Assembly (NCBI GenBank): GCA_045636665.1
Contig: JAZTXY010000138.1
Coordinates: 1-40,723 of the forward strand
Length of the DNA: 40,723 nt
Direction of reading: 5' to 3'
Source of the DNA: Eubacteriales bacterium
GTDB taxonomy: Bacteria; Bacillota; Clostridia; Oscillospirales; CAG-382
Shown here: piece after piece, positions 12,943 to 39,386 of the stretch
How positions within the stretch are numbered: the first letter of the stretch is position 1
Layout of the letters: each line of letters starts with the position of its first letter
Made by a program: the position numbers and the translations under genes
Notes under the pieces: model-generated
What the model saw: only the letters and a program-made list of their open reading frames with translations
Database searches by the model: none
What the model was told of the DNA's origin: nothing

Positions 12943-14139
12943 TTAAAGTCTTGAAGCGATCGCTTCCAAAAATTCGGTTGTATTTACCTGCGTTTTGTTT
13001 TCAAGCGTGGAAATAAGGTAAAGGTCCTTGGTCATAACGCCGCTTTCGATAGTGTCGATACAAGCATGCTCAAGCTTATCGGCAAATTCGCAAAGCTCGT
13101 CGATTCCGTCCAATTCACCGCGTTTTCTCAAAGCGCCGGTCCATGCGAATATCGTCGCAACAGAGTTGGTGGAGGTGGGCAAGCCCTTTAAGTGGTTGTA
13201 ATAGTGGCGTTGAACCGTGCCGTGAGCCGCTTCGTATTCATAAATTCCGTCGGGCGAAACAAGCACGCTCGTCATCATTGCCAACGAGCCGTATGCGGTG
13301 GAAACCATATCGCTCATAACGTCGCCGTCATAATTCTTACAAGCCCAAATAAAGCCGCCCTCCGAACGGATAACGCGCGCAACGGCGTCATCGATAAGGG
13401 TGTAGAAATATTCGATTCCGTTGGATTCGAACTTTTCTTTATATTCGGTTTCATAGATTTCGGCGAAAATATCCTTGAATCTGTGGTCGTAGGTTTTGCT
13501 TATGGTATCCTTGGAGGAGAACCAAAGGTCCATTTTCATATCAAGCGCGTAATCAAAGCAGCTTCTTGCAAAGCCCTGAATGCTCTTTTCAAGGTTGTGA
13601 ACGCCTTGGATAATGCCGTCGGTCTTGAAATCGTGGATAAGCGCACGGGTTTCGCTTCCGTCGGGTGCGGTAACGACAAGCTCTGCCTTGCTTCCTGCGT
13701 TGACCTTCATTTCGGTCGCTTTATAGATATCGCCGTATGCGTGACGAGCGATGGAAATGGGCTTTGTCCAATTACGCACGTAAGGAGGAATGCCCTTAAC
13801 GATTATCGGGGTACGGAACACAGTGCCGTCGAGAATCGCACGGATGGTACCGTTGGGGCTTTTCCACATTTCTTTAAGGTTGTATTCGGTCATTCTTGCC
13901 GCGTTGGGTGTAATTGTCGCACACTTAACGGCAACGCCGTATTTCTTTGCGGCATTTGCAGAATCGACAGTGACTTGGTCATTCGTTTCGTTACGGTGTT
14001 CAAGACCGAGGTCGTAATATTCGGTTTTGAGGTCGATATAGGGATTAAGAAGAATATCCTTTATCTGTTGCCAGATTATTCTCGTCATTTCGTCGCCGTC
14101 CATTTCCACGAGCGGCGTATTCATCTGTATCTTTGCCAT
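12943..14139 (-). CDS. icd: NADP-dependent isocitrate dehydrogenase (type II)
   Basis: [47 protein letters not shown]. Confidence 0.96.
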
Positions 14140-14178
14140 TTTTATTCTCCTTTTTGGTAGATTTTAGAGAGATTTTTA

Positions 14179-14227
14179 CTTAAGAACCTTTTTGAAAAAA
14201 GGTTCTTAAGAATCTCCAAAAACTTTC
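14179..14227 (+). repeat. Hairpin + AAAAACTTTC intergenic repeat, copy 1
   Basis: CTTAAGAACCTTTTT/AAAAAGGTTCTTAAG stem then CCAAAAACTTTC; related copies at 25683, 29228 and 29880. Confidence 0.6.
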
Positions 14228-14332
14228 AATACAATAAAATCATATATTTTTCGGCGACATGTGCATCGAAAAATATACCTATGATGTTCGCAACCTTGGA
14301 CAAGCCGAAGGCGCGCACAAGGTTGGCGCGAG

Positions 14333-14366
14333 CATGGGTTCCCTGAAAATGCTTGCATTTTTGGGG
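14333..14366 (-). repeat. CCCCAAAAA...GG(A)ACCCATG intergenic repeat, copy 1
   Basis: Minus strand CCCCAAAAATGCAAGCATTTTCAGGGAACCCATG; related copies at 21427 and 27579. Confidence 0.55.
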
Positions 14367-14372
14367 AGTTTT

Positions 14373-16295
14373 TTATCCCTTCGTATATTCAAGCAGACCG
14401 CCCGCAAGGATTATATCGCGGTCGCGTCCCGAAAGCGAGGAAACAAGCTTGATTTCCTTGCCGTTTGCATTAAGGGTGATTTCTCTGCCCTCTTTAATGC
14501 AATTTCTCAAATCGGTAAGCCTTAGCTTATCGCCGAGCGAGATGGAATCGTAATCTTCGGTATTTGCGAAGGTAAGCGGAAGAATACCTGCGTTTACGAG
14601 GTTTGCCGCGTGGATACGGGCAAAGCTCTTTGCGATGACCGCTTTTACGCCGAGATAAAGGGGAACAAGAGCCGCATGCTCACGTGAGCTGCCTTGACCG
14701 TAGTTTTCGCCGCCGATGATAATACCGCCGTTCTTTTCCTTTGCGCGAGAAGGAAATTCCTCGTCGCAAACCTCAAAGCAGAAGTTGGAAAGATAAGGAA
14801 TGTTGGAGCGGTAGGGCAAAATTTTCGCGCCTGCAGGCATAATGTGGTCGGTGGTGATGTTGTCGCCGACCTTGAGGATACATTCGCAATCGATATTATC
14901 CGCAACGGGACGGCTTTCGGGGAAGGGCTTGATGTTGGGGCCGCGAACGACCTCGACTTCTGCCGCATCATCAACGCTTGCGGGCTTGATGACCATATTA
15001 TCGTTTATCATAAACTTATTGGGCATTTTGATTTCGGGCATTTCACCGATAGTTCTCGGGTCGGTAAGCACACCGGTAAGCGCGGAAATTGCCGCTGTTT
15101 CGGGGCTTACAAGATATACCTGAGCATCCTTGGTGCCGCTTCTTCCCAAGAAGTTGCGGTTGAAGGTACGCAAGGAAACACCTGCCGATTGAGGCGATTG
15201 TCCCATACCGATGCAAGGACCGCACGCAGATTCGAGAATTCTTGCGCCCGCATCGATCATCCAAGAAAGAGCACCGCTTTCGGCAAGCATATTATAAACC
15301 TGCTTACTGCCGGGAGCGATGGAAAGACTTACGTTATCGTGAACGGTTTTGCCCTTCAAAATGTGCGCGACCTTCATAAGATCGACGTAAGACGAGTTTG
15401 TGCAGGAGCCGATACATACCTGATCGACCTTGATAGCACCGATTTCCTCGATAGATTTTACGTTGTCGGGGCTGTGAGGACAAGCCGCCGCAGGAACGAG
15501 CGAGGAAAGATCGATATCGATAACGAGATCGTAAACGGCATCGTCATCCGCCTTAAGCTCGACGTATTGGTCTTCTCTTCCCTGCGCCGCAAGGAAAAGA
15601 CGGGTGTTTTCATCAGAGGGGAATACCGAGGTACTTGCGCCCAATTCCGCGCCCATATTCGTGATAGTTCCGCGTTCGGGAACGGTGAGAGTTTTAACGC
15701 CCTCTCCGCCGTATTCGATAATTCTGCCGACGCCGCCCTTTACGCTCAAACGGCGAAGAACCTCAAGAATTACGTCCTTTGCGGAAACCCAATCGTTTAA
15801 TTTTCCGGTAAGATTAACGCGAACCATTTCGGGCATGGTGATGTGGTAAGCGCCGCCGCCCATTGCAACGGCTACGTCCAAACCGCCTGCACCGAATGCA
15901 AGCATACCCAAGCCGCCGCCCGTGGGGGTGTGGCTGTCCGAGCCGATAAGGGTTTTACCGGGCACACCGAAGCGTTCAAGGTGTACCTGATGGCAGATGC
16001 CGTTACCGGGACGCGAGAAATAAAGACCGTACTTTTTCGCACAGGTGCGGATATAAAGATGGTCGTCGGCATTCATAAAGCCGTTTTGAAGTGTGTTATG
16101 GTCGATATATGCTACCGAAAGCTCGGTTTTTACACGCGGAATACCCATTGCCTCGAATTCGAGATAAGCCATGGTACCGGTTGCATCCTGAGTAAGCGTT
16201 TGGTCGATTCTGAGGCCGATGGGCGAGCCCTTGACCATTTCACCTTCAACAAGGTGAGCTTTGATTATTTTTTGAGCTATTGTAAGTCCGGACAT
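14373..16295 (-). CDS. Aconitate hydratase (640 aa)
   Basis: DQTLTQDATG, GSDSHT, IGSCTN, CGPCIG, ITTDHI, NYGQGSSREHA; lies between citrate synthase and icd. Confidence 0.93.
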   Translation of the reverse strand: MSGLTIAQKIIKAHLVEGEMVKGSPIGLRIDQTLTQDATGTMAYLEFEAMGIPRVKTELSVAYIDHNTLQNGFMNADDHLYIRTCAKKYGLYFSRPGNGICHQVHLERFGVPGKTLIGSDSHTPTGGGLGMLAFGAGGLDVAVAMGGGAYHITMPEMVRVNLTGKLNDWVSAKDVILEVLRRLSVKGGVGRIIEYGGEGVKTLTVPERGTITNMGAELGASTSVFPSDENTRLFLAAQGREDQYVELKADDDAVYDLVIDIDLSSLVPAAACPHSPDNVKSIEEIGAIKVDQVCIGSCTNSSYVDLMKVAHILKGKTVHDNVSLSIAPGSKQVYNMLAESGALSWMIDAGARILESACGPCIGMGQSPQSAGVSLRTFNRNFLGRSGTKDAQVYLVSPETAAISALTGVLTDPRTIGEMPEIKMPNKFMINDNMVIKPASVDDAAEVEVVRGPNIKPFPESRPVADNIDCECILKVGDNITTDHIMPAGAKILPYRSNIPYLSNFCFEVCDEEFPSRAKEKNGGIIIGGENYGQGSSREHAALVPLYLGVKAVIAKSFARIHAANLVNAGILPLTFANTEDYDSISLGDKLRLTDLRNCIKEGREITLNANGKEIKLVSSLSGRDRDIILAGGLLEYTKG

Positions 16296-17653
16296 TATAA
16301 ATTATCCTTTCTGTCATCAAGTTCGATATAAGGCAATTTTCCGTGGAAGGTACGGTATGCGGGACGCATTATGCGACGGCAGGTGATGATTTCCTCAAGA
16401 CGGTGAGCGCACCAGCCCGAAAGACGGGCGATTGCAAACAACGGGGTGAACAGCTCTTGAGGGATGCCGAGCATACGGTAAACAAGGCCCGAATAAAGGT
16501 CGACGTTTGCACAGATTGCGTTACCGTAATGCATTTTGTTCTGCAAAAGCTCGGGCGCAAGCTTTTCAACTGTATGTAAAATGTTGAAGTCCTCACGCAT
16601 ACCGAACATATCGCAATGCTCCTCTGCCGCTTTACGCAATATCGTCGCACGCGGGTCGCTTAACGTATAGACCGCATGTCCCATACCGTAGATAAGACCG
16701 CTTCTGTCACCGGCTTCTTTGTTAAGAAGCTTTTTAAGGTAGGAAGCAATTTCGTCCTCATCCTTATAATCTCCGACGTTTGCTTTGATATCGTCAAGCA
16801 TTTTAACTACCTTTATATTAGCGCCGCCGTGACGGGGGCCCTTGAGTGCGCCGATACCTGCGGCGATCGCTGAGAAAGTATCGGTTCCCGATGAGGTGAG
16901 CGCACGAACCGCAAAGGTCGAGTTGTTACCGCCGCCGTGCTCGGCGTGGAGTATCAAGCATTTATCGAGCAGCTTTGCTTCCTCACGCGTGAACTTGCGG
17001 TCGAAGCGAAGCATCGAAAGTATGTTTTCCGCCATACTCTGTCCGGGAATCGGAGAGTGAAGGAAGAAGCTTTCATTATCGTAATAACGCTTTTTGACCT
17101 GATATGCCGCCGTCATTATCATCGGCATACGCGCGATTATCATAAGCGACTGACGAAGCACGTTATCGATAGAATTATCGTCGGGGTTATCGTCATAGCT
17201 GTAAAGAGCAAGCACGCTTCTTGCAAGCTTGTTCATAATATCGGGACTGGGCGCGCGCATTATCATATCCTCGATAAAGGACATGGGCGGATCGCTGTAT
17301 TCATCGATTATGGTATCGTAAAAATCAAGCTCGTTTTTTGTGGGGAGCGAGCCGAAAAGAAGAAGCCAAGATGCTTCGTCATAACCGAAACGGTCGTTAC
17401 GGTCGGTCGCATCGATAATTTCGTTGATGCTTATACCGCGGTAAAAAAGCTCACCCTCGCAGGGGACTCGCTCATATTCGTTTATAACGTAACCGTGTAC
17501 GTTACTTACCTTGGTAATACCCGCAAGCACACCCGTGCCGTCGGGATTACGAAGTCCGCGCTTTACACCGTATTTTGTATGCAGCTGTTCATCGAAAACG
17601 CTGTTTTCGGTCAGGTTCCTCGCAAGCGCTTCGATATTTAATTTATTGTTCAT
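16295..17653 (-). CDS. gltA: Citrate synthase (Si-type family)
   Basis: LHAEHGGGNNSTF, GPRHGGAN, GMGHAVY, ANVDLYSG; promoter TTGACA(17709)-N17-TATAAT(17686). Confidence 0.9.
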   Translation of the reverse strand: MNNKLNIEALARNLTENSVFDEQLHTKYGVKRGLRNPDGTGVLAGITKVSNVHGYVINEYERVPCEGELFYRGISINEIIDATDRNDRFGYDEASWLLLFGSLPTKNELDFYDTIIDEYSDPPMSFIEDMIMRAPSPDIMNKLARSVLALYSYDDNPDDNSIDNVLRQSLMIIARMPMIMTAAYQVKKRYYDNESFFLHSPIPGQSMAENILSMLRFDRKFTREEAKLLDKCLILHAEHGGGNNSTFAVRALTSSGTDTFSAIAAGIGALKGPRHGGANIKVVKMLDDIKANVGDYKDEDEIASYLKKLLNKEAGDRSGLIYGMGHAVYTLSDPRATILRKAAEEHCDMFGMREDFNILHTVEKLAPELLQNKMHYGNAICANVDLYSGLVYRMLGIPQELFTPLFAIARLSGWCAHRLEEIITCRRIMRPAYRTFHGKLPYIELDDRKDNL

Positions 17654-17819: not shown

Positions 17820-18593
17820 TTATTTTGCAGGGGCAGATGCAGATTCGGAAAGCAGGTTCTTCATCGAGTAAAGTCCCTTTTGCTTTTTCGAAATATATTC
17901 CGCCGCTTTAAGCGCGCCTTCGGCAAACAATGCGCGTGTTTCGGCAGTGTGCTTGATGCTTAACGTTTCGCCGTTTCGGCTCAAAATCACTTCGTGTTCG
18001 CCGAAAATACCGCCGCAACGAATCGAAGAAATGCCGATTTCGTTGTCGGGACGCACACAGCGTCGCGCGGTTCTGTCGGTAACAAATTCGGTTTCATCGG
18101 GCATAAGCTCCTTTATTCCCTCGGCAATCATAAGAGCAGTGCCGCTGGGTGCATCGAGCTTATTACGGTGATGCTTTTCGATGATTTCAATATCGCATTC
18201 TCCGCCGAAAGCGGTATAAGCGCTTCTGCAGAGGTCGATAAGCAAATTGATACCAAGCGACATATTGCGCGAGAAGAACACGGCAAAATCCTTGGAAAGC
18301 TCGTTCATCATCGTGCGTTCGCTTTCGGTATGTCCGGTTGAAGCGATAACGCAGGGGATTCCGCTTTTACGCACAAATTCGCAAATTTCGGGAAGCGCCG
18401 TATGATTGGTGAAATCGATAAGAGCGTCTGCCGATTCCTTTACATCGCCAAGCGAGGAGTAAAAAGGAACGTTATCGAAATCGGGTGTGCCGAATTTATC
18501 GACGGCAGATACGATTTCCACGCCGTTTCTGTTTGCGGCGGCAATGATTTCCTTGCCCATTCTTCCGCAAGCGCCGTTAAGTATGATTTTCAT
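17820..18593 (-). CDS. dapB: 4-hydroxy-tetrahydrodipicolinate reductase
   Basis: GACGRMG, IDFT, IIEKHHRNKLDAPSGTA, FAEGALKAA. Confidence 0.95.
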   Translation of the reverse strand: MKIILNGACGRMGKEIIAAANRNGVEIVSAVDKFGTPDFDNVPFYSSLGDVKESADALIDFTNHTALPEICEFVRKSGIPCVIASTGHTESERTMMNELSKDFAVFFSRNMSLGINLLIDLCRSAYTAFGGECDIEIIEKHHRNKLDAPSGTALMIAEGIKELMPDETEFVTDRTARRCVRPDNEIGISSIRCGGIFGEHEVILSRNGETLSIKHTAETRALFAEGALKAAEYISKKQKGLYSMKNLLSESASAPAK

Positions 18594-18614
18594 AGTTGAT
18601 TTCCTTACGTTTAA

Positions 18615-19508
18615 TTACTTGATAAGGCCTTGCTCACGCATAAGCGCGAAAAGCTTTTCGTCGTCTGCCGCATCCATAGGACAAAGGGGCATACGGAATT
18701 CGTTGCTGCAGAATCCCATTTTTGCAACCGCAGTCTTTACGGGTATGGGATTTACCTGCATAAACAAGCCGTTCATAAGGCGGAGATACTTAAGCTGGAG
18801 AGAAGCGGCGGTTTTGAAATCGCCGTCAAGACAGAGCTTTGCGATACGGTGTGCTTCGGAGGGCATAATGTTCGAAAATACCGAAATAACGCCGATTGCG
18901 CCCATCGACATAAGAGGAACGATTTGCTGATCGTCGCCGCTGTACATATTAAGGTCGTCGCCGCACGCTTCGAGCACCTCCATCATAAGAAGGAGGTTGC
19001 CGCTTGCTTCCTTCGTCGCAACGATATTTTCGTGCTTCGAAAGCTGCTTATACGAATCTACGGAAATGCAGAATCCTGTTCTTCCGGGTACGTTATAAAC
19101 GATACAAGGAATATTTACCGAATCGGCAACGGTATTGAAGTGGCTGACAATGCCCTTTTGAGAGCATTTGTTGTAATAAGGAGTAACGAGCAACAAGCCG
19201 TCGGCACCCGCACGTTCGGCAAAACGCGAAAGGTCGATAGCATACTGTGTATTATTAGAGCCGGTGCCCGCAATTACGGGAACGCGCTTGTTAACTTTTT
19301 CTATTGCAAATTCAAGAACACGCTTGTGTTCATCGTCATCCAAGGTTGCAGGTTCACCCGTAGTACCGCAGATAACGAGAGCATCGATACCGCCGTTAAT
19401 TTGAAATTCAAGCATATTTTCAAGTGCGGCATAATCAACCGCGCCGTCCTTGAAGGGGGTGATAAGCGCGGTAGCGGCTCCCTTGAATATGGTATTACTG
19501 ATAGACAT
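18615..19508 (-). CDS. dapA: 4-hydroxy-tetrahydrodipicolinate synthase
   Basis: TALITPF, GTTGE, TPYYNK, YNVPGRT, KEAS, NPIPVK; start at ATG 19508 after GGAGG; promoter TTGACA(19575)-N17-TACAAT(19552). Confidence 0.95.
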   Translation of the reverse strand: MSISNTIFKGAATALITPFKDGAVDYAALENMLEFQINGGIDALVICGTTGEPATLDDDEHKRVLEFAIEKVNKRVPVIAGTGSNNTQYAIDLSRFAERAGADGLLLVTPYYNKCSQKGIVSHFNTVADSVNIPCIVYNVPGRTGFCISVDSYKQLSKHENIVATKEASGNLLLMMEVLEACGDDLNMYSGDDQQIVPLMSMGAIGVISVFSNIMPSEAHRIAKLCLDGDFKTAASLQLKYLRLMNGLFMQVNPIPVKTAVAKMGFCSNEFRMPLCPMDAADDEKLFALMREQGLIK

Positions 19509-19709
19509 AAAAATTTCCTCCGCGGATAAAAAAATGTATTCATTGTATTGTAACACCGAAATTGTCAATTGTCAATGTTTTGGCTGTGATTTGAGCAAGA
19601 AAAAGTTCTTTTTATTTATCACGTTACTTTGATATTGATAAAGCTATTGACTTTTTGCTTTAATATATGTATAATGACAAATAAATCTTTGAAAAGTGAG
19701 GTTTCATTT

Positions 19710-21245
19710 ATGAAAAAGTTCGCACGCACACTTGCTTTTTTGCTTTGTGCTGTAATGATGTTCTCGGTTTTCGCGGCTTGTGAGGACAGCGGCTCTGTTT
19801 CTGTTGAAGATTCGAACGCTGCCAACGAATCGGCAAACGCAGAATCTTCATTCGATGACGAAAAAGGCTTTTATGGATACGAAGGCGTTCCCGAAGGCAC
19901 TGATTACGAAGGTAAACTGGTCAGAGTTCTCACCTTGGCTTCTTACCAAGTAAAGCCCGAGGATGCTCCCGGGTATGATGAAAATAACGTTTCTACTGTA
20001 CTTGCAACAGCATCTGAATGCACCCGTTTGGTTGAACAGCTTTTGAACGTTACTGTTGAAGAAGAAGGTATTTCAACCGGCTCCCGTTACGGCGGCCCCT
20101 TCTATAAGCGCGTTCAAACGGATGCAATGAGCGACACCGCTGACTATTTGTTCATTATGCCCGCACTTACCGAAGCTGCTATGCTCGCTTCCGACGGCAT
20201 TCTTTACGACTTGAACACTCTCGTTGACCTTGACAACCCTTGGTGGTGTAAGGAATTTAACGATGCGGTTACCATCGCAGGCAAGACTTATTTTGCCGCA
20301 AGCGATATAACCACCGTAAGCGTTGCTTCCACAATGTTCGTTCTCTTTAACAAGGAACTTGAAAAGAAGAACGGTCTTGCAAGCAAATACGGCTATGAAT
20401 CCATGTATGATATGGTTGACAAAAAGGCGTGGACTCAAGACGTTATGTTTGAAATGGCAAAATCCGTTTACAACGATACCAACGAAAACAACATTTCCGA
20501 CCCTGCTGATATGGTCGGTATTTCCGCTCAGCACAACGTAGTCTTCTGGCTCCTCCGTTCGGGCGGCATTAACGTTTGTACTCTTGACGGCGAAGGCTAT
20601 CCCGAGCTTACCGTTAACAACGAACGCGCAATTTCGCTTATCACCAAGGCTCAGGAATATTGCCAGGATCCCGTTTCCGGTCTTGTTATTGCCGACGAAC
20701 ATAAGGACGGCGGCGAAGCTGTAAATCCCTGCACTCAGGCATTTATCGACGGCAGAGGTCTCTTCTTCTTCAACGCGATCAGCGCAATGGATGCTGTCCG
20801 TACTATGGAAGATGACTTCGGCGTTCTTCCCTGCCCTATGTATGACAACACTCAAGAAAACTACACCTGCAACGTTGGTGCGTGGACCTCTAACTGTATC
20901 GCTATCCCCACCTTCATTACCGGCGAAGACCTTGATCTTGCAGTTCAATTTATCGAATCTCTCGGCGCAGTTTCCCGCAAGAAGCTCACCCCCACCTATT
21001 TCGAACAAAATCTTCAATATCAAATCTCGCGCGATGACGAATCGATGAGAATGCTCGAGCTTATTAACCAAAACCGCGTTCCCGACCTTTCGGAAATGTA
21101 CCGTTGGGGTGCAATGATGCAAACCATCGCTGATTTGCGTACCGCACCTGTCGGCACCTTCGTTTCGGCTTACGATGCAATCGATGAACAAACCATTCTC
21201 GAAATCGAAGCAACTGTCGAAAAGTTCAAGAGCAGCCAAAAATAA
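19710..21245 (+). CDS. Extracellular solute-binding lipoprotein (carbohydrate-ABC-like)
   Basis: MKKFAR...VFAAC lipobox; DLDNPWW and DFGVLPCP motifs; promoter TTGACT(19647)-N17-TATAAT(19670). Confidence 0.8.
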   Translation: MKKFARTLAFLLCAVMMFSVFAACEDSGSVSVEDSNAANESANAESSFDDEKGFYGYEGVPEGTDYEGKLVRVLTLASYQVKPEDAPGYDENNVSTVLATASECTRLVEQLLNVTVEEEGISTGSRYGGPFYKRVQTDAMSDTADYLFIMPALTEAAMLASDGILYDLNTLVDLDNPWWCKEFNDAVTIAGKTYFAASDITTVSVASTMFVLFNKELEKKNGLASKYGYESMYDMVDKKAWTQDVMFEMAKSVYNDTNENNISDPADMVGISAQHNVVFWLLRSGGINVCTLDGEGYPELTVNNERAISLITKAQEYCQDPVSGLVIADEHKDGGEAVNPCTQAFIDGRGLFFFNAISAMDAVRTMEDDFGVLPCPMYDNTQENYTCNVGAWTSNCIAIPTFITGEDLDLAVQFIESLGAVSRKKLTPTYFEQNLQYQISRDDESMRMLELINQNRVPDLSEMYRWGAMMQTIADLRTAPVGTFVSAYDAIDEQTILEIEATVEKFKSSQK

Positions 21246-21252
21246 ACGCATT

Positions 21253-21330
21253 AAGAGGACGGATACACCGTCCTCTTTCTTTTTTGTTCGTTCGAAAAAA
21301 TAAAACGGCACCCGAAAGTGCCGTTTTTTT
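21253..21330 (+). terminator. Two tandem intrinsic terminators
   Basis: AAGAGGACGG/CCGTCCTCTT plus U-rich tail, and AAAACGGCAC/GTGCCGTTTT plus U-run. Confidence 0.75.
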
Positions 21331-21335
21331 ATTGC

Positions 21336-21640
21336 TTGTGCGATATGCGCCGTTATGCAAGCACGATGCAATCAACCGAAGAATAATCGATGCAGATTGC
21401 AAAAAATCGAATGACGCTGCATTTCGCCCCAAAAACGACAAGCGTTTTCGGGGACCCCATGACCTACTGCGAGGATGCCGATTTTTTATAGCATAAATTT
21501 TAATTTATGTGTTCTGCGCTATTATGCATACATTTTGAGTGCGCGGCAGAACGGATGCAGATTGCGCAAACGCAAGCGCAGCTGTAGAAACCTACTGCAA
21601 GCGCGCGTTTGTGCGATATGCGCCGTTATGCAAGCACGAT
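21336..21640. repeat. Composite intergenic repeat bounded by an exact 32-bp direct repeat
   Basis: TTGTGCGATATGCGCCGTTATGCAAGCACGAT at 21336-21367 and 21609-21640; GATGCAGATTGC and CCTACTGC each occur twice inside; GGGACCCC element at 21427-21461. Confidence 0.8.
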
Positions 21641-22690
21641 CTCCTTGCCCTGTTCGGAGGAGTCATACATAGCCTGCATCATAGTTGCGGTGATGATTGC
21701 CTTGTCGATGTGAGAAGGAAGCTTTTCGCCGGTCTTGATGCAACGGATGAAGGAATCGATTTCGTTCTGGAACATTGCGTTCGCCTTGAACTTGGGCTTG
21801 AATTCGATAAGAGTATCGCAGGAGGTGGTATACATGGTGAAGTCGCCGCCGTAGGTAAGACGGATACCTGCCTTGGTACCGATAAAGTCGATAAAGGTTT
21901 CTTGGATACCGATGTTTTGTGCCCAAGCGCCGTTGAAGGTAATGGTGGGACCTTCGGTACGAACGAAGCCGGTAACGAAGTCGTCAACGTCGTAAACGCC
22001 GTTGAGGTCCTTGGTATCTTCAGACCACATGCCGTTGTAAACGTAGTTAGGCATATCTACGCCGAGCTTGGAGAAAGCTTTTGCGGAAACGGTGAGAGGC
22101 TTGGGGTCATCGGTACAGTACATAACGATGTCGAGGTAGTGAACGCCCCAGTCGATAAGAACGCCGCCGCCTGCAATGGATTTATCGGTGAATGCACCGC
22201 CGAGGCCGGGGATGGAGCGATGAGCGCGGAAGCTTACGTAAACGTGGTAAACTTCGCCAAGCTCGCCTGCTTGAATAAGCTCGCGAACCTTATTAACTGC
22301 TGCATTGAAGCGGTTAACAACGCCGATATTGAGAACCTTGCCGGTTACGTGCTGTGCTTTTTGCATTTCAAGAGCTTCGGGAAGAGTTCTTGCAGAAGGC
22401 TTTTCGCAAAGAACGTTCTTGCCTGCTTTGAGGAAGTCGATGGTAATGGTGCTGTGCATTTTGTTGGGGGTACAAACCGAAACTGCTTCGATTTCGGGGT
22501 CGTTAAGGATATCGTGATAATCCTCAACAGCAGTACCGCAACCGTACTTTTCAACAGCTGCTTCTGCTTTAGACTTGATAACGTCGCAGAAATACTTAAT
22601 TTCTACTTCTTCGTTTGCCATATACGCGGGGATGTGCGCGCTGTTGGCGATGGTACCGCAACCGATAATTGCGATCTTCATTTTAGACAT
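21626..22690 (-). CDS. Gfo/Idh/MocA family oxidoreductase
   Basis: IIGCGTIA Rossmann motif, VCTPNKMH, LCEKP, GGGVLIDWGVH. Confidence 0.92.
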   Translation of the reverse strand: MSKMKIAIIGCGTIANSAHIPAYMANEEVEIKYFCDVIKSKAEAAVEKYGCGTAVEDYHDILNDPEIEAVSVCTPNKMHSTITIDFLKAGKNVLCEKPSARTLPEALEMQKAQHVTGKVLNIGVVNRFNAAVNKVRELIQAGELGEVYHVYVSFRAHRSIPGLGGAFTDKSIAGGGVLIDWGVHYLDIVMYCTDDPKPLTVSAKAFSKLGVDMPNYVYNGMWSEDTKDLNGVYDVDDFVTGFVRTEGPTITFNGAWAQNIGIQETFIDFIGTKAGIRLTYGGDFTMYTTSCDTLIEFKPKFKANAMFQNEIDSFIRCIKTGEKLPSHIDKAIITATMMQAMYDSSEQGKEIVLA

Positions 22691-22812
22691 AATACTTTCC
22701 TCCGAAATTTATGTTTTAAAGGATATTGGCATATCACCAAATAGTTACTCTTATATTACCATAAAGAATTCTCTTTTTCAATAGATTTTTCCAACAAAAC
22801 TCAAAAAAACAC

Positions 22813-22841
22813 TTGACACAACCGCACTTTATGTTTATACT
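22813..22841 (+). promoter_or_regulatory. Sigma-A promoter of the T-box-type leader
   Basis: TTGACA 22813-22818, N17, TATACT 22836-22841. Confidence 0.8.
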
Positions 22842-22852
22842 AATGTAACAAA

Positions 22853-23090
22853 AGCTATGAAGGGGACAAAGCGTCCGATTTTTCACTTTTCAGAGAGCCG
22901 TCGTTTGGTGCGAGACGGTAGGTGTTGCGGATTGTGAACTCACCCCGGAGCTGCCGTTCCGAGGATTTTTTTCGTTAGGTTCGGTCGGGTTTCTCGCCGT
23001 TATCAGGAGAGCGCGCTGTTTGGCGTTGCGATGATAATATTGATTTACCCATGCTCGGTCTATGCTTTTTGCTTTGACCGAGTTTTTTTA
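22853..23090 (+). promoter_or_regulatory. T-box-type leader, Leu (CUC) specifier, antiterminator motif not recognisable
   Basis: Stem I GA motif (GCTATGAAGGGG...CCCCGGAGC), CAGAGAG and GGTGCGA motifs, GAA-CTC-A specifier loop (22939-22941), CCGTTA stem IIA/B motif, terminator-like CTCGGTC/GACCGAG+T7; no TGGNACC. Confidence 0.75.
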
Positions 23091-23120
23091 TTCTTTATTA
23101 TCCCATAAGGAGCAAACACA

Positions 23121-25655
23121 ATGAAATTATCCTTCTCAACACTTGCCTGCCCCGAATACAGCTTTTCGGATATGTACGCTATGGCGAAGGACCTTGGATT
23201 TGACGGTATCGAGGTGCGCGGCCTTGGCAACGATATATTTGACAACAAGCACAATATGCCCTTTTCAAGCGCAAACATCGCCGAAACGGCAAAAATGCTT
23301 AAATCTGTCGGATTGGAAATTTCGATTCTTTCGTCCGACTGCTGCTTGAGATACAAGGAGCTTGCCGACGAAAACAAAAAAATCGTTTCGGAATATATTC
23401 AAGCGGCAAAGGCATTGGGCACGAAATACGTGCGCGTGCTCGGTGACGACGGCCCCGCCCCCACCGACGGCGGCAACGATGAAGAGGTTATACGTCAGCT
23501 TTTGGACCTCACCCCCGTTGCGGAAGAAGCGGGTGTTACGCTTCTTATCGAAACGAACGGTGTTTACAGCGATACCGCGCGTCTTAAATCTCTGCTCGAT
23601 AATATCCACAGCGACAACGTAGCCGTACTTTGGGATATTCACCACCCCTACCGCTTTATGCACGAATCGCCCGAGCAAACCGTTCAGAATTTGGGTATGT
23701 ATATCGCGCACGTTCATATTAAGGACAGCATCGAAGAAGACGGCGAAATCCTTTACAAGCTTATGGGCGAAGGCGATATGCCGATAGAGGATATGATAAA
23801 CGCTTTGCGCTCGATCAATTTCGAGGGTTATCTTTCGCTTGAATGGGTTAAGCGCTGGGCTCCTTATTTGCAGGATGCGGGTATTATCTTCCCCAACTAT
23901 ATCAACTATATGAGCGCATTTACGGGAAGAAGAAGCGGAAGCGATACGCTTATCGACGACCTTCGCGGAAACGGCAAGTATATTTGGCAAAAGAATATGC
24001 TTATCGACCTCACCTTCCCCCAAGTGCTCGACCGTGTTTGCGAAGCATTCCCCGACCAATATGCATTCCGTTTCACCGAATGCGATTACACCCGTACCTA
24101 TCCCCAATTCCGCGATGACGTTGACAGATTCGCACGCGCGTTGATATCGCTCGGCGTTAAACGCGGCGACCACGTTGCGGTTTGGTCGACAAACCTGCCG
24201 CAGTGGTATATTGCTTTCTGGGCAACCACAAAAATCGGCGCGGTTTTGGTTACCGCAAACACCGCTTATAAAATTTACGAAATCGAATATCTGCTCCGTC
24301 AGTCCGACACTCACACGCTTATTATGTGCGACGGATATAAGGACAGCGATTACAACGCTATTATTCACGAGCTTTGTCCCGAATTGAACGAGCATCAAGC
24401 GGGCAAGCCGCTTTACACAAAGCGTCTTCCCTTCCTTCGCAACGTAATTACGCTGCAAAGCGAACAAAAGGGCTGTCTTACTTGGGATGCCGCGCTTGAA
24501 TATGCCGAAAACACCCCGATTGAAGAGGTTTACCGCCGCGCATCGCTTATAAGCAAGCACGACGTTTGCAATATGCAATACACCTCGGGCACAACGGGAT
24601 TCCCCAAGGGCGTTATGCTCACCCACTACAACGTTGTTAACAACGGCAAAAACATCGGCGACGGTATGGACCTTTCGTCCGCAGACCGTATGATGATTCA
24701 AGTGCCGATGTTCCACTGCTTCGGTATGGTGCTTGCGATGACCGCATCGGTCACCCACGGCGTAACGATGTCGCCGCTTTCCTATTTTTCACCGAAGCGC
24801 GCGCTTGATTGCATCAACAAGGAAAAAATCACCTGCTTCCACGGTGTGCCGACAATGTTTATTGCGTTGCTCGAAAACGAAAAGTTCAAGGACACCGATT
24901 TTTCACATATGCGTACGGGCATTATGGCAGGCTCGCCTTGTCCCGTTAAGGTAATGCAGGACGTTGTCGAAAAGATGAATATGTCCGAAATCACCATCGT
25001 TTACGGTCAGACCGAGGCTTCGCCCGGATGTACTATGAGTCTTACCACCGACAGTCTTGAGGCGCGTGTTAACACGGTTGGCGGCGCGATGTTCGGCGTT
25101 GAATGCAAAATCGTCGACCCCGAAACGGGCGAAGAGCTTCCCAACAACGTCGACGGCGAATTTGTCGCACGCGGATATAACATAATGAAGGGTTATTATA
25201 AAATGCCCCAAGCGACCGCGCTTGCTATCGACGAAAACGGCTGGCTTCACACGGGCGACCTTGCAAGAAAGACCGACGAGGGTTATTTCAAGATAACCGG
25301 CAGAATAAAGGATATGATCATCCGCGGCGGCGAAAACATTTACCCCAAGGAAATCGAGGACTTTATTTACACCCACGAAAAGGTAAAGGACGTTCAGGTC
25401 ATCGGCGTTCCCGACGTTCAGTACGGCGAGGAAATTATGGCTTGGATAGTACCCAAGGAGGGCGAAACCATTACCGAGGACGAAATTAAAACCTACGTCA
25501 AGGAGCATATGGCGAAGCACAAAACACCCAAATACGTTAAGTTTGTAAGCGAGTTCCCGATGAACGCGGCAGGCAAGATACTTAAGTACAAGATGCGCGA
25601 AATGTCGGTCGAGGAGCTTAACCTTAAAAAGGCGGCTTCGATTGAAACGGCGTAA
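23121..25655 (+). CDS. Fusion of xylose-isomerase-like TIM barrel and AMP-forming acyl-CoA synthetase
   Basis: N-terminal ~265 aa with GFDGIEVR, LIET, WDIHH, HVHIKD, LSLEW; C-terminal QYTSGTTGFPKG, YGQTE, GWLHTGDL, IIRGGENIYP. Confidence 0.9.
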   Translation: MKLSFSTLACPEYSFSDMYAMAKDLGFDGIEVRGLGNDIFDNKHNMPFSSANIAETAKMLKSVGLEISILSSDCCLRYKELADENKKIVSEYIQAAKALGTKYVRVLGDDGPAPTDGGNDEEVIRQLLDLTPVAEEAGVTLLIETNGVYSDTARLKSLLDNIHSDNVAVLWDIHHPYRFMHESPEQTVQNLGMYIAHVHIKDSIEEDGEILYKLMGEGDMPIEDMINALRSINFEGYLSLEWVKRWAPYLQDAGIIFPNYINYMSAFTGRRSGSDTLIDDLRGNGKYIWQKNMLIDLTFPQVLDRVCEAFPDQYAFRFTECDYTRTYPQFRDDVDRFARALISLGVKRGDHVAVWSTNLPQWYIAFWATTKIGAVLVTANTAYKIYEIEYLLRQSDTHTLIMCDGYKDSDYNAIIHELCPELNEHQAGKPLYTKRLPFLRNVITLQSEQKGCLTWDAALEYAENTPIEEVYRRASLISKHDVCNMQYTSGTTGFPKGVMLTHYNVVNNGKNIGDGMDLSSADRMMIQVPMFHCFGMVLAMTASVTHGVTMSPLSYFSPKRALDCINKEKITCFHGVPTMFIALLENEKFKDTDFSHMRTGIMAGSPCPVKVMQDVVEKMNMSEITIVYGQTEASPGCTMSLTTDSLEARVNTVGGAMFGVECKIVDPETGEELPNNVDGEFVARGYNIMKGYYKMPQATALAIDENGWLHTGDLARKTDEGYFKITGRIKDMIIRGGENIYPKEIEDFIYTHEKVKDVQVIGVPDVQYGEEIMAWIVPKEGETITEDEIKTYVKEHMAKHKTPKYVKFVSEFPMNAAGKILKYKMREMSVEELNLKKAASIETA

Positions 25656-25682: not shown

Positions 25683-25736
25683 GCGAGAAAAAACTTTTAA
25701 AAAAGTCTTTTCTCGCGCTCTTTTTCAAAAGCTTTT
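25683..25736 (+). repeat. Hairpin + AAAAGCTTTT intergenic repeat, copy 2
   Basis: GCGAGAAAAAACTTTT..AAAAGTCTTTTCTCGC-GCTCTTTTTC-AAAAGCTTTT, same architecture as the 29228 and 29880 copies. Confidence 0.6.
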
Positions 25737-25836: not shown

Positions 25837-26916
25837 ATGAACGGAAGAAAGATTTTTGACGACATAACAAAGGCGGGCTTTGACTGCGCGTTGTTTCTTG
25901 ACGAAAACAGTCAATACTATTTAAGCGATTTTTACACCACCGACGGCGCGGTTATCGTTGCTAAGGACGAAACGGCGTTATTGACCGATTCGCGCTATAT
26001 CGAAGCGGCGGAAAACGACAAAAAGGCGGGCAAGCTATCACCCGACGTCAGCCCTTACCTTTTCAAAAAGGGACTTTATCCCGATATTGCCGATTATTTT
26101 GCGAATATAAACGCAAAAAAGGTTGCGCTTGACCCTGCACTCGTTACGATAAAGCAGCTTCAGACGCTTAACAAGCTTTGCGAGGGGGTTGAATTCGGTT
26201 ATATTTCCGACGTTTGCCTTAAGCACAGACAGGTAAAGACTGCCGAAGAGGTTGAAAAGATTCGCCGCGCGCAGAGCATTACCGACAAGGCTTTTTCGCA
26301 CATTTTGGGCTTCATCAACGGTGACAGAACCGAGCTTGAAGTTGCCGCAGAGCTTGAATATTTTATGCGCTCGAACGGTGCGAACGGATTGGCGTTTGAC
26401 ACCATTGCCGTTTCGGGCAAAAATTCCTCGCTTCCCCACGGTGTGCCGACCGATGCGAAGCTGACACAAAATTCCTTTTTCACAATGGACTACGGCGCGA
26501 AATTTGCAGGTTATTGCTCGGATATGACGAGAACCGTCGTTTTGGGCAAGGCAGACGACGAAATGAAGCGTATTTACAACACCGTTCTTACCGCGCAATC
26601 CGAGGCGATGAAATATATTCGCGCAGGCGTTACCGGCAAGGAAGCCGACAAGGTCGCGCGCGACGTTATTACCGATGCGGGCTACGGAGCATATTTCGGT
26701 CACTCCTTGGGACATTCGTTGGGACTTGAAATTCACGAGCTTCCCTCGGTATCGCCCAAGAGCGAGGCTGTTTTGGTTGAAGGCAACATTGTAACCGTTG
26801 AGCCGGGCATTTACATCCCCGGAAAATACGGTGTGAGAATCGAAAATATGGTGCTTGTTACCGAAAACGGTTGCATTAACCTTACAAACAGTGAAAGACA
26901 GTTGATTGAACTTTAA
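25837..26916 (+). CDS. Xaa-Pro aminopeptidase (M24 family)
   Basis: TDSRY, SLPHG, YCSDMTRT, HSLGHSLGLEIHE, TVEPGIY, GVRIE; typical position before efp. Confidence 0.93.
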   Translation: MNGRKIFDDITKAGFDCALFLDENSQYYLSDFYTTDGAVIVAKDETALLTDSRYIEAAENDKKAGKLSPDVSPYLFKKGLYPDIADYFANINAKKVALDPALVTIKQLQTLNKLCEGVEFGYISDVCLKHRQVKTAEEVEKIRRAQSITDKAFSHILGFINGDRTELEVAAELEYFMRSNGANGLAFDTIAVSGKNSSLPHGVPTDAKLTQNSFFTMDYGAKFAGYCSDMTRTVVLGKADDEMKRIYNTVLTAQSEAMKYIRAGVTGKEADKVARDVITDAGYGAYFGHSLGHSLGLEIHELPSVSPKSEAVLVEGNIVTVEPGIYIPGKYGVRIENMVLVTENGCINLTNSERQLIEL

Positions 26917-27008: not shown

Positions 27009-27566
27009 ATGATTTCGGCAGGCGATTTCAAAAACGGTCTGACCTTTGAAATGGATGGCCAGCTTATGCAGGTTATCGAATTCCAGCACGTAAAACCCGG
27101 TAAAGGCGCGGCTTTCGTTAGAACCAAGATGAGAAACATCATCTCCGGCGCAGTTATCGAAACTTCTTTTAACCCCACCGCAAAATTCCCCTCCGCTCTC
27201 GTTGAGAGAAGAGATATGGAATACAGCTACACCGATGGCGATCTTTATTACTTTATGGATCCCGTTACCTACGATCAAGAACCCCTTAACGCTGAACAGC
27301 TTCCCGATAGCTTTAAGTTCGTTAAAGAAGGTATGACCTGCAGACTTATGTCTTACAAGGGCAAGGTCTTCTCGGTTGAACCTCCCATTTTCGTTGAGCT
27401 TGAAGTTACCGCTACCGAACCCGGCGTTCGCGGCAACACCGCTACCAACGTTACCAAGCCCGCTACCGTTGAAACCGGTGCTGAGGTTAAGGTTCCGATA
27501 TTCATCAACGAAGGCGACGTTATCAAGATTGATACCAGAACCTGCGAATATCTTGAAAGAGTATAA
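27009..27566 (+). CDS. efp: Translation elongation factor P
   Basis: [32 protein letters not shown]; promoter TTGACA(26925)-N17-TAAAAT(26948). Confidence 0.98.
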
Positions 27567-28390: not shown

Positions 28391-29200
28391 ATGAGCATTT
28401 CACGAGAAATTATTGACGTACACACACATATTTGGCCCGACAAGATTGCTTTGCGCGCGGCGGACAATATCGTCAACTACTATTCGCTTCCCCGTCAAGG
28501 CGACGGCTCGATCGAGGGTATTTTCAAGGGCGCAGAAGGGCTTGACAACGTCAGATTCGTTATTTCCTCCGCAACCTTAAAGCCCGACGTTGCACACGCG
28601 CAGGTCGGCAACGATTTCCTTATCAACACTGCCAATGCGGACAAGCGTTTTATCCCCCTCGCATCCTTCCATCCCTTTATGGGCTTTGACGAGGCGGTCG
28701 GCGAGCTTGAGCGTTGCAAGGCGCTCGGCGCAAGGGGTATCAAGATACATTCCGACTTTCAGCGCTTTAATATCGATGATGAACGCGCCATGGCTATTTA
28801 CAAAGAATGCGCGCGGCTTAACTTCCCCATTCTTTTCCACGTTGGCGACAAGAATACCGAATTTTCGACTCCGAAAAAGGTTTTGGGCATTTTGGAAAAG
28901 CTTCCCGAATTGACTGTCATCGCGGCGCATATGTGCGGCTACAGCGTTTGGGACGAGGCAGAGGAATATCTTATCGGCACGCCCGTTTATACCGACACGA
29001 GCGAAGCGCTTATCGGTATGGACGGCAAAGGTCTTTACCGCCTTATCGAAAAGCACGGTGTTGAAAAAGTGCTTTTCGGTTCGGATTATCCGCTTTGGAA
29101 CACTCGATTTGCCTTTGACCAAATTGAATCGATCGGCTTGTCCGAGTCCGAAAAGGACGCGATTTACTCGGGCAACGCAAAGAGAGTTTTCGGTGTTTGA
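28391..29200 (+). CDS. Amidohydrolase family protein (Amidohydro_2-like)
   Basis: IDVHTH, GIKIH, LFHVG, IAAHM, VLFGSDYP. Confidence 0.9.
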   Translation: MSISREIIDVHTHIWPDKIALRAADNIVNYYSLPRQGDGSIEGIFKGAEGLDNVRFVISSATLKPDVAHAQVGNDFLINTANADKRFIPLASFHPFMGFDEAVGELERCKALGARGIKIHSDFQRFNIDDERAMAIYKECARLNFPILFHVGDKNTEFSTPKKVLGILEKLPELTVIAAHMCGYSVWDEAEEYLIGTPVYTDTSEALIGMDGKGLYRLIEKHGVEKVLFGSDYPLWNTRFAFDQIESIGLSESEKDAIYSGNAKRVFGV

Positions 29201-38009: not shown

Positions 38010-38174
38010 TTCTTATCCAGAGTGGCGGAGGGAACTGCCCGACGAAGCCACGACAACCTACAATTTATGCAAGGTGTCAATTCAGTAGTTTATTTAAACG
38101 AAGATGAGATGTTTCAAGAGTTTCGGTTTATAACTATGCCCTTTGAACATCTTGTCAAAGGGTATTTTATTTTG
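38010..38174 (+). promoter_or_regulatory. SAM-I (S-box) riboswitch with terminator
   Basis: CTTATCCAGAGTGGCGGAGGGAACTGCCCGACGAAGCC..CAACC..AAGGTGTCAATTC..AAGATGAG; terminator ATGCCCTTTGA/TCAAAGGGTAT+U; upstream of metK. Confidence 0.92.
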
Positions 38175-38210: not shown

Positions 38211-39386
38211 ATGAGAAAATTTTTCACCTCTGAATCCGTAACCGAAGGACATCCCGATAAGATCTGCGACCAAATTTCCGACGCAGTGCTTGACTCGATA
38301 CTTTCCGTTGACCCCATGGCTCGCGTTGCTTGTGAAACCGCTTGCACCACCGGTCTTATTCTCGTAATGGGCGAAATCACCACCACCGCAAAGCCCGATT
38401 TCCAAAGCATCGCGCGTGAAACCGTTCGCAATATCGGATACGACCACAGCGACAAGGGCTTTGACTGCGACACCTGCGGCGTTATTACCGCAATTCACGG
38501 TCAATCTCCCGACATTGCAATGGGCGTTGACAAGGCGCTTGAAGCAAAGACAGGCGAAATGAAGGACGACAAGGACACCGGCGCAGGCGACCAAGGTATG
38601 GTTTTCGGCTTTGCTTGTAACGAAACTCCCGAGCTTATGCCTATGCCCATCTCGCTTGCACAGCATATGTCCAAGCGTCTTTCCGAGGTTCGCAAGAACG
38701 GCACTCTCCCCTATCTCCGCGCAGACGGCAAAACTCAGGTTACCGTTGAATACGAGGATAATAAGCCCGTTCGTGTTGACGCTATCGTAGTTTCCTCTCA
38801 ACACGCAGAAGAAATCAGCCTTGAACAGATTCGCGAGGACATCATCCGCGAGGTTATTATCCCCTCTGTTCCTGCTGAATATATGGACGATAACACCAAG
38901 ATTTACGTTAACCCCACCGGACGCTTCGTTGTCGGCGGCCCTCACGGTGACAGCGGTCTTACCGGCAGAAAGATTATCGTTGATACCTACGGCGGATATG
39001 CTTCCCACGGCGGCGGCGCATTCTCCGGTAAGGACCCGACAAAGGTTGACAGAAGCGCGGCTTATATGGCTCGCTACGTTGCAAAGAACATCGTTGCTTC
39101 CGGCGCTGCAGACAGATGTGAGGTTCAAATCGCTTACGCTATCGGCGTTGCAAGACCTCTTTCGGTTCTTATCAACACCAACGGCACCGGCAAGGTAAGT
39201 GACGAACGTCTTGCAGAAATCGTTAACGAGGTATTCGACCTCCGTCCCGCAGCTATCATCGAAACGCTCGACCTCCGCAAGCCCATTTACAAGAATCTTG
39301 CGGCTTACGGTCACTTCGGACGCGAAGAGCTCGGCGTAAAATGGGAAATCACCGATAAAGCAGACGAAATCAAGGCAAGAATTTAA
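38211..39386 (+). CDS. metK: S-adenosylmethionine synthetase
   Basis: [49 protein letters not shown]. Confidence 0.99.

Follow-up and report, generated by a model that had tools for sequence, protein, structure and literature searches.

The contig JAZTXY010000138.1 of a Eubacteriales bacterium (assembly GCA_045636665.1; GTDB lineage Bacteria; Bacillota; Clostridia; Oscillospirales; CAG-382), analysed here over its whole length of 40,723 nucleotides and called the window below, carries a leucine-specific T-box derivative directly in front of a gene whose product fuses a xylose-isomerase-like TIM (triosephosphate isomerase) barrel to an AMP-forming acyl-coenzyme A (acyl-CoA) synthetase. We propose, with moderate confidence, that this leader gates expression of the fusion by transcription termination and that the fusion activates a branched short-chain acid, probably isovalerate, for leucine synthesis by VorBAC, a branched-chain 2-oxoacid:ferredoxin oxidoreductase (VOR), and the aminotransferase IlvE. 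The leader with its leucine codon and terminator, the family-wide occurrence of Leu T-boxes and the operon and phyletic links of the fusion to VorBAC and IlvE are direct observations. Through the fusion this gut or rumen anaerobe could probably rebuild leucine from the fermentation acid isovalerate.

An earlier note on this DNA, made from the sequence alone, had described a T-box with a GAA-CTC-A leucine specifier ahead of an AMP-forming acyl-CoA synthetase. Both elements are confirmed (RF00230, 69.9 bits and sub-threshold; PF00501), and the identification as a T-box stands as far as Stem I, the specifier, Stem II, the F-box and the terminator are concerned; it does not extend to the UGGN acceptor-binding sequence. 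The Rfam scan of the whole window, which was run at the gathering threshold, lists one SAM (S-adenosylmethionine) riboswitch and two tRNAs and no T-box. When the region 22650-23250 was rescanned by E-value, RF00230 matched 22848-23021 on the plus strand (E 3.9e-15) with a score that does not reach the gathering score of 93. The alignment takes in Stem I, the specifier, Stem II and the F-box and leaves the 3′ third of the model unmatched. Genome-wide, within a 1.8-Mb assembly that is 80% complete, there are four RF00230 matches and all of them fall below 93 (90.2, 90.1, 69.9 and 29.2 bits). The fold energy of the whole leader has no excess stability over shuffled sequences (z −0.76); since folding energy thus gives no signal, the leader is supported by its match to the covariance model and by its conservation.

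The conserved parts of the leader, whose positions are given in Table 1, are those expected of the 5′ two thirds of a T-box. Stem I has its AG bay and distal loop, the specifier loop has a purine after the codon, and 24 of the 29 close loci retain these features. Also present are Stem II and the IIA/B element with its F-box, the base pairs of Stem IIA being unchanged in 22 of 22 sequences; the GGAGAG that follows is, by eye, complementary to the IIA loop UUCUC and could form a IIB pseudoknot with it. The hairpin next in line has compensatory changes in five of its six pairs in an RNAalifold analysis of 22 leaders, and an equivalent hairpin also occurs in canonical leaders. An intrinsic terminator closes the leader and its pairs are retained across the 22 leaders; a simple terminator scan had missed it because its loop exceeds 8 nt. 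The sigma-70-like promoter is also kept in close orthologous loci. A tRNA-Leu(GAG) with A73 and an encoded CCA is found in the same genome at C86:74704-74786.

The specifier was surveyed in three samples of orthologues, namely the close loci of the family, further family fragments and 80 loci from named assemblies. By the reasoning of the earlier note, orthologues lacking T-boxes for Leu, Ile or Val would have spoken against a role in leucine supply; in every T-box that was read, before an orthologue or before its operon, the specifier is CUC or CUG. Among the close loci with the N-terminus in view, a leader is found in 24 of 29 (23 of 28 when the window itself is excluded), always with CUC, and the base preceding the codon varies between A, G and U while the codon itself is constant. 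Rfam recognizes a T-box in 12 of the 20 further family fragments, two canonical ones exceeding the threshold (115.6 and 107.5 bits). Of the 80 loci from named assemblies, 77 show the N-terminus, and in 25 of these a T-box profile match immediately precedes the fusion gene. A LeuA-like gene lies directly before the fusion at 23 loci, and 15 of them have the match upstream of that gene. The specifiers of these 40 T-boxes (of 80 loci) are CUC in 38 cases and CUG in two, with UGGU wherever the canonical bulge is present; the Rfam gathering score was passed at 10 of 11 tested loci, upstream of the fusion or its operon (94.7-118.4 bits). A motif search of ~650 nt upstream found no T-box in 40 more distant fragments (L055-L094), a search that is blind to leaders ahead of an intervening LeuA-like gene and hence gives no evidence of absence. 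Gut-1 RNA (RF01706) was also seen near salvage loci of other genomes (L039:619-666, L105:2-74 and L164:146-222), two of the matches exceeding the gathering score.

The leader of the window is not an ordinary T-box and has lost the canonical acceptor-binding sequence. Aligned to its canonical relatives it is homologous through the hairpin mentioned above, after which Stem III and AGAGUGGUACCGCGG are replaced. No UGGNACC occurs between the F-box and the terminator, so that the canonical UGGN bulge is missing; the genome's three other T-boxes have GGUGGUACCGCG, GGUGGCACCGCG and GGGUGGAACCGUG (leaders of pheS, a trp gene and thrS). Judged from its sequence, the leader of this lineage no longer has the element by which a T-box normally tests whether the tRNA is charged. 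The segment found in its place is complementary to Stem IIA and the F-box, with a duplex energy of −13.1 kcal/mol (z −2.73 against shuffles), and minimum free energy (MFE) folds show the two paired. Complementarity of this kind at z < −2 is found in 17 of 27 distinct variant leaders and in 0 of 15 canonical leaders. The variant occurs in four genera of the family (that of the window, g6, g8 and g12), with 29 distinct variant leaders; the canonical leader is found in a fifth family genus, g13, and in many other Clostridia. We tentatively suggest, as a possibility with clearly less than even chances, that the acceptor-end sensor formed by Stem III and the UGGN bulge was exchanged for this pairing segment, and that the leader would switch between a tRNA-stabilized IIA/B pseudoknot and a long-range helix, tRNA-Leu being decoded without NCCA pairing. 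If true, the leader of this lineage would be a new kind of T-box expression platform, placed on the missing isovalerate-activating gene. It keeps the tRNA-decoding half without the eponymous T-box and, if still switching, would represent a second way of coupling tRNA to termination in this riboswitch class.

Several other candidates for the 3′ part of the switch were rejected. No convincing canonical antiterminator was found by eye, in MFE folds of truncated leaders, by RNAalifold or in a search for duplexes between the tRNA-Leu 3′ end and the 3′ domain. The UGG in the hairpin loop was discarded as an acceptor-binding site, the loop UGG not being conserved, and pairing of the terminator 5′ strand with the 3′ side of Stem I is not significant for the window leader (z −0.42). 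In one clade of the same genus (L028-L036; e.g. L028:1057-1183) the 5′ strand of the terminator (AGCUCUGUCGGUG) can form 12 bp with the 3′ strand of Stem I immediately following the specifier (CACCACAGAGCU), with −15.0 to −16.3 kcal/mol and z about −4; this pairing suggests that the antiterminator of these loci would be a swap of the lower Stem I helix.

The absence of the UGGN-ACC bulge and of a match to the 3′ third of the Rfam model could also mean that the T-box of this lineage has decayed. The leader would then no longer sense charging and would be constitutive or an otherwise controlled attenuator, the Leu link being historical for this copy. For the 3′ segment the most favourable small alternative fold has just −1.8 kcal/mol, locus L025 is reduced to the 3′ part and at L015, L023 and L029 nothing is left, and leuA, leuC and leuB are present in the genome of the window; all of this is in line with decay. 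However, Stem I, the CUC codon, Stem II and the IIA/B element are intact in all 29 distinct variant leaders from the four genera, and the replacing segment is conserved and matches the IIA/F-box region in the proportions given above, which looks like selection for a new switch and not like decay. We regard decay as somewhat unlikely and retain the reading of the leader as a leucine-specific T-box derivative that gates the fusion by termination.

Full-length relatives of the fusion at ~70% identity are widespread in Clostridia and are annotated merely as 'AMP-binding protein' or similar; Ligaoa zhengdingensis, Petroclostridium sp. and Hydrogenispora ethanolica are among the carriers. Some genomes encode the halves separately in two neighbouring genes, with the ligase gene either first or second. 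The N-terminal half matches PF01261 with 111 bits against a cut-off of 31. In the ligase half, PF00501 covers residues 304-693 (313.8 bits, E 1.9e-93) and PF13193 residues 744-819 (68.2 bits), and the closest solved structures are feruloyl- and fatty-acyl-CoA synthases (E about 1e-76). The MbcS model NF047394 does not appear among the 25 best models for the protein. Sequence searches against solved structures gave no specific relative for the TIM domain, the ligase or the Amidohydro_2 protein described below.

The link to leucine synthesis comes from the neighbours of the fusion in other genomes, whose proteins were clustered across the 80 loci from named assemblies. A LeuA-like gene lies directly upstream of the fusion at 23 of these loci and an Amidohydro_2 gene directly downstream at 13; the alpha, beta and gamma subunits of a 2-oxoacid:ferredoxin oxidoreductase are found at nine, seven and seven loci of the 80, a class IV aminotransferase at six and a large single-chain pyruvate:ferredoxin oxidoreductase at three. 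NCBIfam identifies the alpha subunit as VorB (537 bits, cut-off 399) and the aminotransferase as IlvE (508 bits, cut-off 307). The operon at L150 and L153 reads T-box(Leu)-LeuA-like-fusion-IlvE-P-loop ATPase-VorB-VorA-VorC and that at L172 VOR-IlvE-LeuA-like-fusion-Amidohydro_2; VOR and a branched-chain aminotransferase thus share an operon with the ligase at L150, L153, L172 and others, and both are also present in the genome of the window, where ilvE is on contig C98 and a P-loop-VorB-beta-gamma operon on C109 (VorB 548 bits against a cut-off of 399). The Amidohydro_2 protein of the window itself is 32% identical to a copy adjoining the fusion in another genome, and its nearest solved structures are, weakly, ACMSD decarboxylases.

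A second type of ligase is found in the same surroundings. In several loci a gene for a helix-turn-helix (HTH)-cupin-MbcS-like protein of ~755 aa precedes P-loop-VOR genes, with its own T-box specifying AUC (Ile) at the five loci read. MbcS-like genes of the genome analysed here are on C66 and C42, apart from the fusion. On C42 (1-2532, locus L193) a gene for a 782-aa HTH_3 + Cupin_2 + MbcS-like acyl-CoA synthetase follows a T-box that is truncated by the start of the contig; this leader specifies AUC (Ile), contains UGGU and has GAGUGGUAUAAUGC instead of the usual UGGNACCGCG. By its sequence this locus is probably an isoleucine/2-methylbutyrate twin of the fusion system. A MinD/ParA/Mrp-like P-loop protein of ~220 aa always precedes the VorB-beta-gamma operon (C109:3660-6910, locus L192; L150:9618-10286). 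Its Pfam and NCBIfam matches are weak, and a function in iron-sulfur cluster assembly or maturation of VOR is conceivable.

The phyletic pattern points in the same direction as the operons. It was drawn from 151 genomes of the family, that of the window included, which are related and many of them incomplete, so that the counts describe a pattern and are not a statistical test. The fusion was found in 119, VorB in 109 and leuB in 54 of these genomes. VorB is present in 104 of the 119 fusion-bearing genomes and in five of the 32 in which the fusion was not found (no VorB in the other 27 of 32). For leuB the corresponding figures are 30/119 and 24/32, with no leuB in 89/119 and 8/32, and accordingly 89 of the 97 genomes without a leuB match have the fusion, a larger share than among those with one (30 of 54). 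Relatives of the Amidohydro_2 protein occur in 106 of the 151 genomes, with a distribution over genera like that of VorB and the fusion; within the genus of the window their genes are in synteny with the fusion gene.

Many rumen and gut anaerobes need branched short-chain acids. In the mechanism that we envisage, leucine limitation would lead to read-through of the leader, and in this lineage uncharged tRNA-Leu would be the inducing signal. The ligase half would then convert isovalerate, its probable substrate, to isovaleryl-CoA; from this VorBAC, using reduced ferredoxin, would form 2-oxoisocaproate by reductive carboxylation, and transamination by IlvE would give leucine.

Table 1. Features of the leader, the fusion gene and its surroundings in the window
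Feature	Position	Strand	Basis
Sigma-70-like promoter TTGACA-17-TATACT	22813-22841	+	Consensus scan, 11/12 positions
T-box leader as a whole	22848-23089	+	Stem I to terminator
T-box 5′ two thirds: Stem I, specifier loop, Stem II, Stem IIA/B with F-box	22848-23021	+	RF00230; homologous leaders before orthologues
Stem I AG bay (AGAGAG) and distal loop (UGGUGCGAGA)	22892-22897 and 22906-22915	+	Rfam alignment
Specifier codon CUC (Leu) within GAA-CUC-A	22939-22941	+	Rfam alignment and sequence
Stem IIA with F-box (GGGUUUCUCGCCGUUAUCA), then GGAGAG	22987-23011	+	Rfam alignment
F-box CCGUUA	22997-23002	+	Rfam alignment
Hairpin with 6-nt loop UGNNNG	23011-23030	+	RNAalifold, 22 leaders
Segment UGAUAAU...UGAUUUACCC in place of Stem III and T-box sequence	23032-23050	+	Sequence, duplex energy
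Intrinsic terminator, 7-bp G+C-rich stem CUCGGUC/GACCGAG and U7 tract	23054-23089	+	Sequence, MFE fold
Ribosome-binding site AAGGAG, 8 nt ahead of ATG	23107-23112	+	Sequence
TIM-barrel::acyl-CoA synthetase fusion gene (P0001), 844 aa	23121-25655	+	Open reading frame, translation, Pfam
Xylose-isomerase-like TIM barrel, residues 21-245	23181-23855	+	PF01261, E 8.8e-32
AMP-forming acyl-CoA synthetase, residues 304-819	24030-25577	+	PF00501 and PF13193
Amidohydro_2 protein, 269 aa, co-occurring partner of the fusion	28391-29200	+	PF04909
Gfo/Idh/MocA oxidoreductase, divergent, membership uncertain	21626-22690	−	Pfam; NCBIfam matches all below cut-offs

A number of observations weigh against this proposal. 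The leader is incomplete or absent at five of the 29 close loci, L018 having a Stem I without F-box in addition to the four loci named above; eight of the 20 further upstream fragments are without a T-box, and in Ruminococcus flavefaciens Y1 the fusion gene is present and no upstream T-box was found. RNAalifold of the leaders gave no antiterminator supported by covariation, and with UGGN-ACC absent from the window leader the sensing of charge is only putative. For the protein, the best NCBIfam model is NF009233/PRK12583, which matches residues 291-836 with 691.4 bits and thus below its cut-off of 832, and substrate specificity is not readable from the ligase sequence. Neither the TIM domain with its conserved metal site nor the Amidohydro_2 protein has a step in the three-enzyme route. 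Among the genomes, 15 of the 119 with the fusion, mostly from genus g5, have no VorB match, and the two-by-two counts overstate the association because related genomes are not independent. The earlier note had suggested checking whether leuABCD are lacking and whether a branched-chain 2-oxoacid:ferredoxin oxidoreductase is encoded. The oxidoreductase is there, with VorB on C109 and in the same operon as the fusion elsewhere; the leu genes are not lacking, since leuA (long form), leuC and leuB all lie on contig C79, with a gap of ~500 nt between leuC and leuB that would fit leuD in size. Salvage is therefore not needed to explain leucine supply here and would run alongside the de novo pathway.

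Since the TIM barrel and the Amidohydro_2 protein have no place in the three-enzyme salvage, which needs neither of them, the true substrate of the ligase could be something that they make. The ligase would in that case still serve leucine supply, on another acid. The two enzymes would first convert an unnamed precursor by dehydration, isomerization or decarboxylation, and the product, e.g. 3-methylcrotonate or another C5 acid, would be activated towards isovaleryl-CoA; alternatively isobutyrate would be activated for 2-oxoisovalerate. The four putative metal ligands of the TIM domain, an assignment made from the family, are all kept in the 30 sequences compared (E144 and E241 invariantly, D172 and H199 in at least 90%), and the domain stays fused or adjacent to the ligase even where the gene order is reversed. 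The adjoining position of Amidohydro_2 and its genus pattern, which resembles that of the fusion, fit as well, as do its nearest relatives among ACMSD-type decarboxylases and the dehydratase AsbF as the nearest fold to the TIM domain. On the other hand, these data name no precursor and the fold matches are generic: in Foldseek searches AsbF (3dx5), the isomerase Art22, ketose 3-epimerases and IolI come out about equal at the top, at 12-22% identity, for a domain modelled by AlphaFold2 with a predicted local distance difference test score of 91. Moreover, the required reductase is not among the operon genes, and the Ile twin system consists of ligase and VOR only, which argues that plain acid activation suffices. 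We consider activation of another acid unlikely and hold to isovalerate as the probable substrate.

It is very improbable that the enzyme spares leucine, by supplying isovaleryl-CoA from external isovalerate under leucine scarcity to prime the synthesis of iso-odd branched-chain fatty acids, in the way that MbcS supplies other primers in Staphylococcus aureus. The MbcS case (PMC10026030) shows that acyl-CoA synthetases can provide fatty-acid primers, and DegV and FakA genes lie downstream of the fusion at two loci (L124 and L133), but the recurrent partners are VorBAC and IlvE and not fatty-acid synthesis genes, and the fusion is commoner where leuB has no match, which fits a leucine-making role.

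We reject the idea that the LeuA-like protein encoded next to the fusion in other genomes is a working isopropylmalate synthase. The Asp of its RDGxQ motif is absent in 23 of 23 sequences (the Arg is kept in nine, Lys occurs in six), as are both His residues of the HxH metal site, and its most conserved part is the C-terminal LeuA_dimer domain (e.g. L150:4536-5999). No LeuC-sized aconitase-family protein was found in the four carrier genomes searched for one (L150, L172, L125 and L166), and leuB gave no match in the three searched (L150, L172 and L125). From its sequence the protein may be a catalytically dead LeuA that acts as a leucine-sensing subunit for the fusion. The genome of the window has a single LeuA_dimer match, and no LeuA-like paralogue was found in it.

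Some further features of the window deserve mention. A perfect 15-bp palindromic hairpin at 25683-25716, 28 nt past the stop codon of the fusion and listed on the minus strand by the scan, may end the fusion transcript; pepQ (25837-26916) and efp (27009-27566) are therefore probably separate units. An opposite-strand coding stretch (...GGTACCGCAGCC...) similar in appearance to the one upstream of the fusion here is found upstream of the fusion at L015, L046, L050 and L051, as judged from flanking nucleotides only. Long open reading frames overlap on opposite strands at 19629-21371 (538 aa on the plus and 432 aa on the minus strand); neither has a Pfam match and which is the real gene is ambiguous. 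The minus strand at 12943-17653 carries genes for citrate synthase, a 640-aa aconitase and an isocitrate-dehydrogenase-like protein, followed by dapB and dapA at 17820-19568. The SAM riboswitch (RF00162, 74.8 bits) lies at 38010-38110, upstream of a 391-aa open reading frame at 38211-39386.

Full-text literature searches returned no paper connecting the fusion, or an acyl-CoA synthetase, with a Leu T-box or with the carboxylation of isovalerate, and none that assigns a gene to isovalerate activation in the carboxylation pathway; Vitreschak et al. 2008 and the supplements of Wels et al. 2008 lay outside these searches and may bear on the claim. The main text of Wels et al. 2008 contains neither 'CoA' nor 'acyl', and two supplements of PMC3766115 gave no match to terms for the system. 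A Leu-specific switch on one conserved family, together with VorBAC and IlvE, offers a directly testable candidate for isovalerate activation.

Compared with known Leu T-boxes (RF00230; e.g. those of Bacillus subtilis leuS and ilv-leu), the window leader shares the AG bay and distal loop of Stem I, the GAA-CUC-A specifier loop, Stem II, the IIA/B element with its F-box, the terminator and a sigma-70-like promoter. The leuS and ilv-leu leaders of B. subtilis likewise use CUC as specifier. The window leader differs from them in lacking Stem III and the UGGN-ACC bulge, in place of which it has the segment complementary to the IIA/F-box region, and in that the gene under its control encodes an acyl-CoA synthetase fusion and not an aminoacyl-tRNA synthetase, a leu/ilv enzyme or a transporter. 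In other lineages the orthologous loci have the full canonical form with AGAGUGGUACCGCGG.

With respect to the protein, the best structural match to the TIM domain is AsbF, the 3-dehydroshikimate dehydratase of Bacillus anthracis (PDB 3dx5; template modelling score 0.73, E 4.8e-14). AsbF and the ketose 3-epimerases have the metal-dependent TIM-barrel fold in common with it, and at such low identity, with unrelated activities scoring equally well, they do not point to a substrate. The best curated family for the ligase, PRK12583/NF009233, which is presumably linked to YngI and ACSF2, is matched below its cut-off and its members are not TIM-fused. As for the pathway, labelling work by Allison, Bryant and co-workers reportedly showed that isovalerate is reductively carboxylated to leucine in rumen anaerobes. 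The parts of this route that follow activation, VorBAC and IlvE, are encoded in the genome of the window and adjoin the fusion in others; the candidate described here differs from the classical scheme by adding a TIM-barrel domain and an Amidohydro_2 partner that have no place in it. A close functional parallel is MbcS of S. aureus, an acyl-CoA synthetase that likewise uses ATP to activate short branched-chain acids taken from outside; as a purified enzyme it activates 2-methylbutyrate and isobutyrate, isovalerate being a poor substrate (PMC10026030). MbcS belongs to another subfamily, prefers 2-methylbutyrate and isobutyrate, supplies lipid synthesis and has no TIM domain, and the MbcS-like ligases of the genomes studied here are separate genes under Ile T-boxes. 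Since MbcS is poor on isovalerate, this acid would be left for a different ligase, in a division of labour between the two enzymes.

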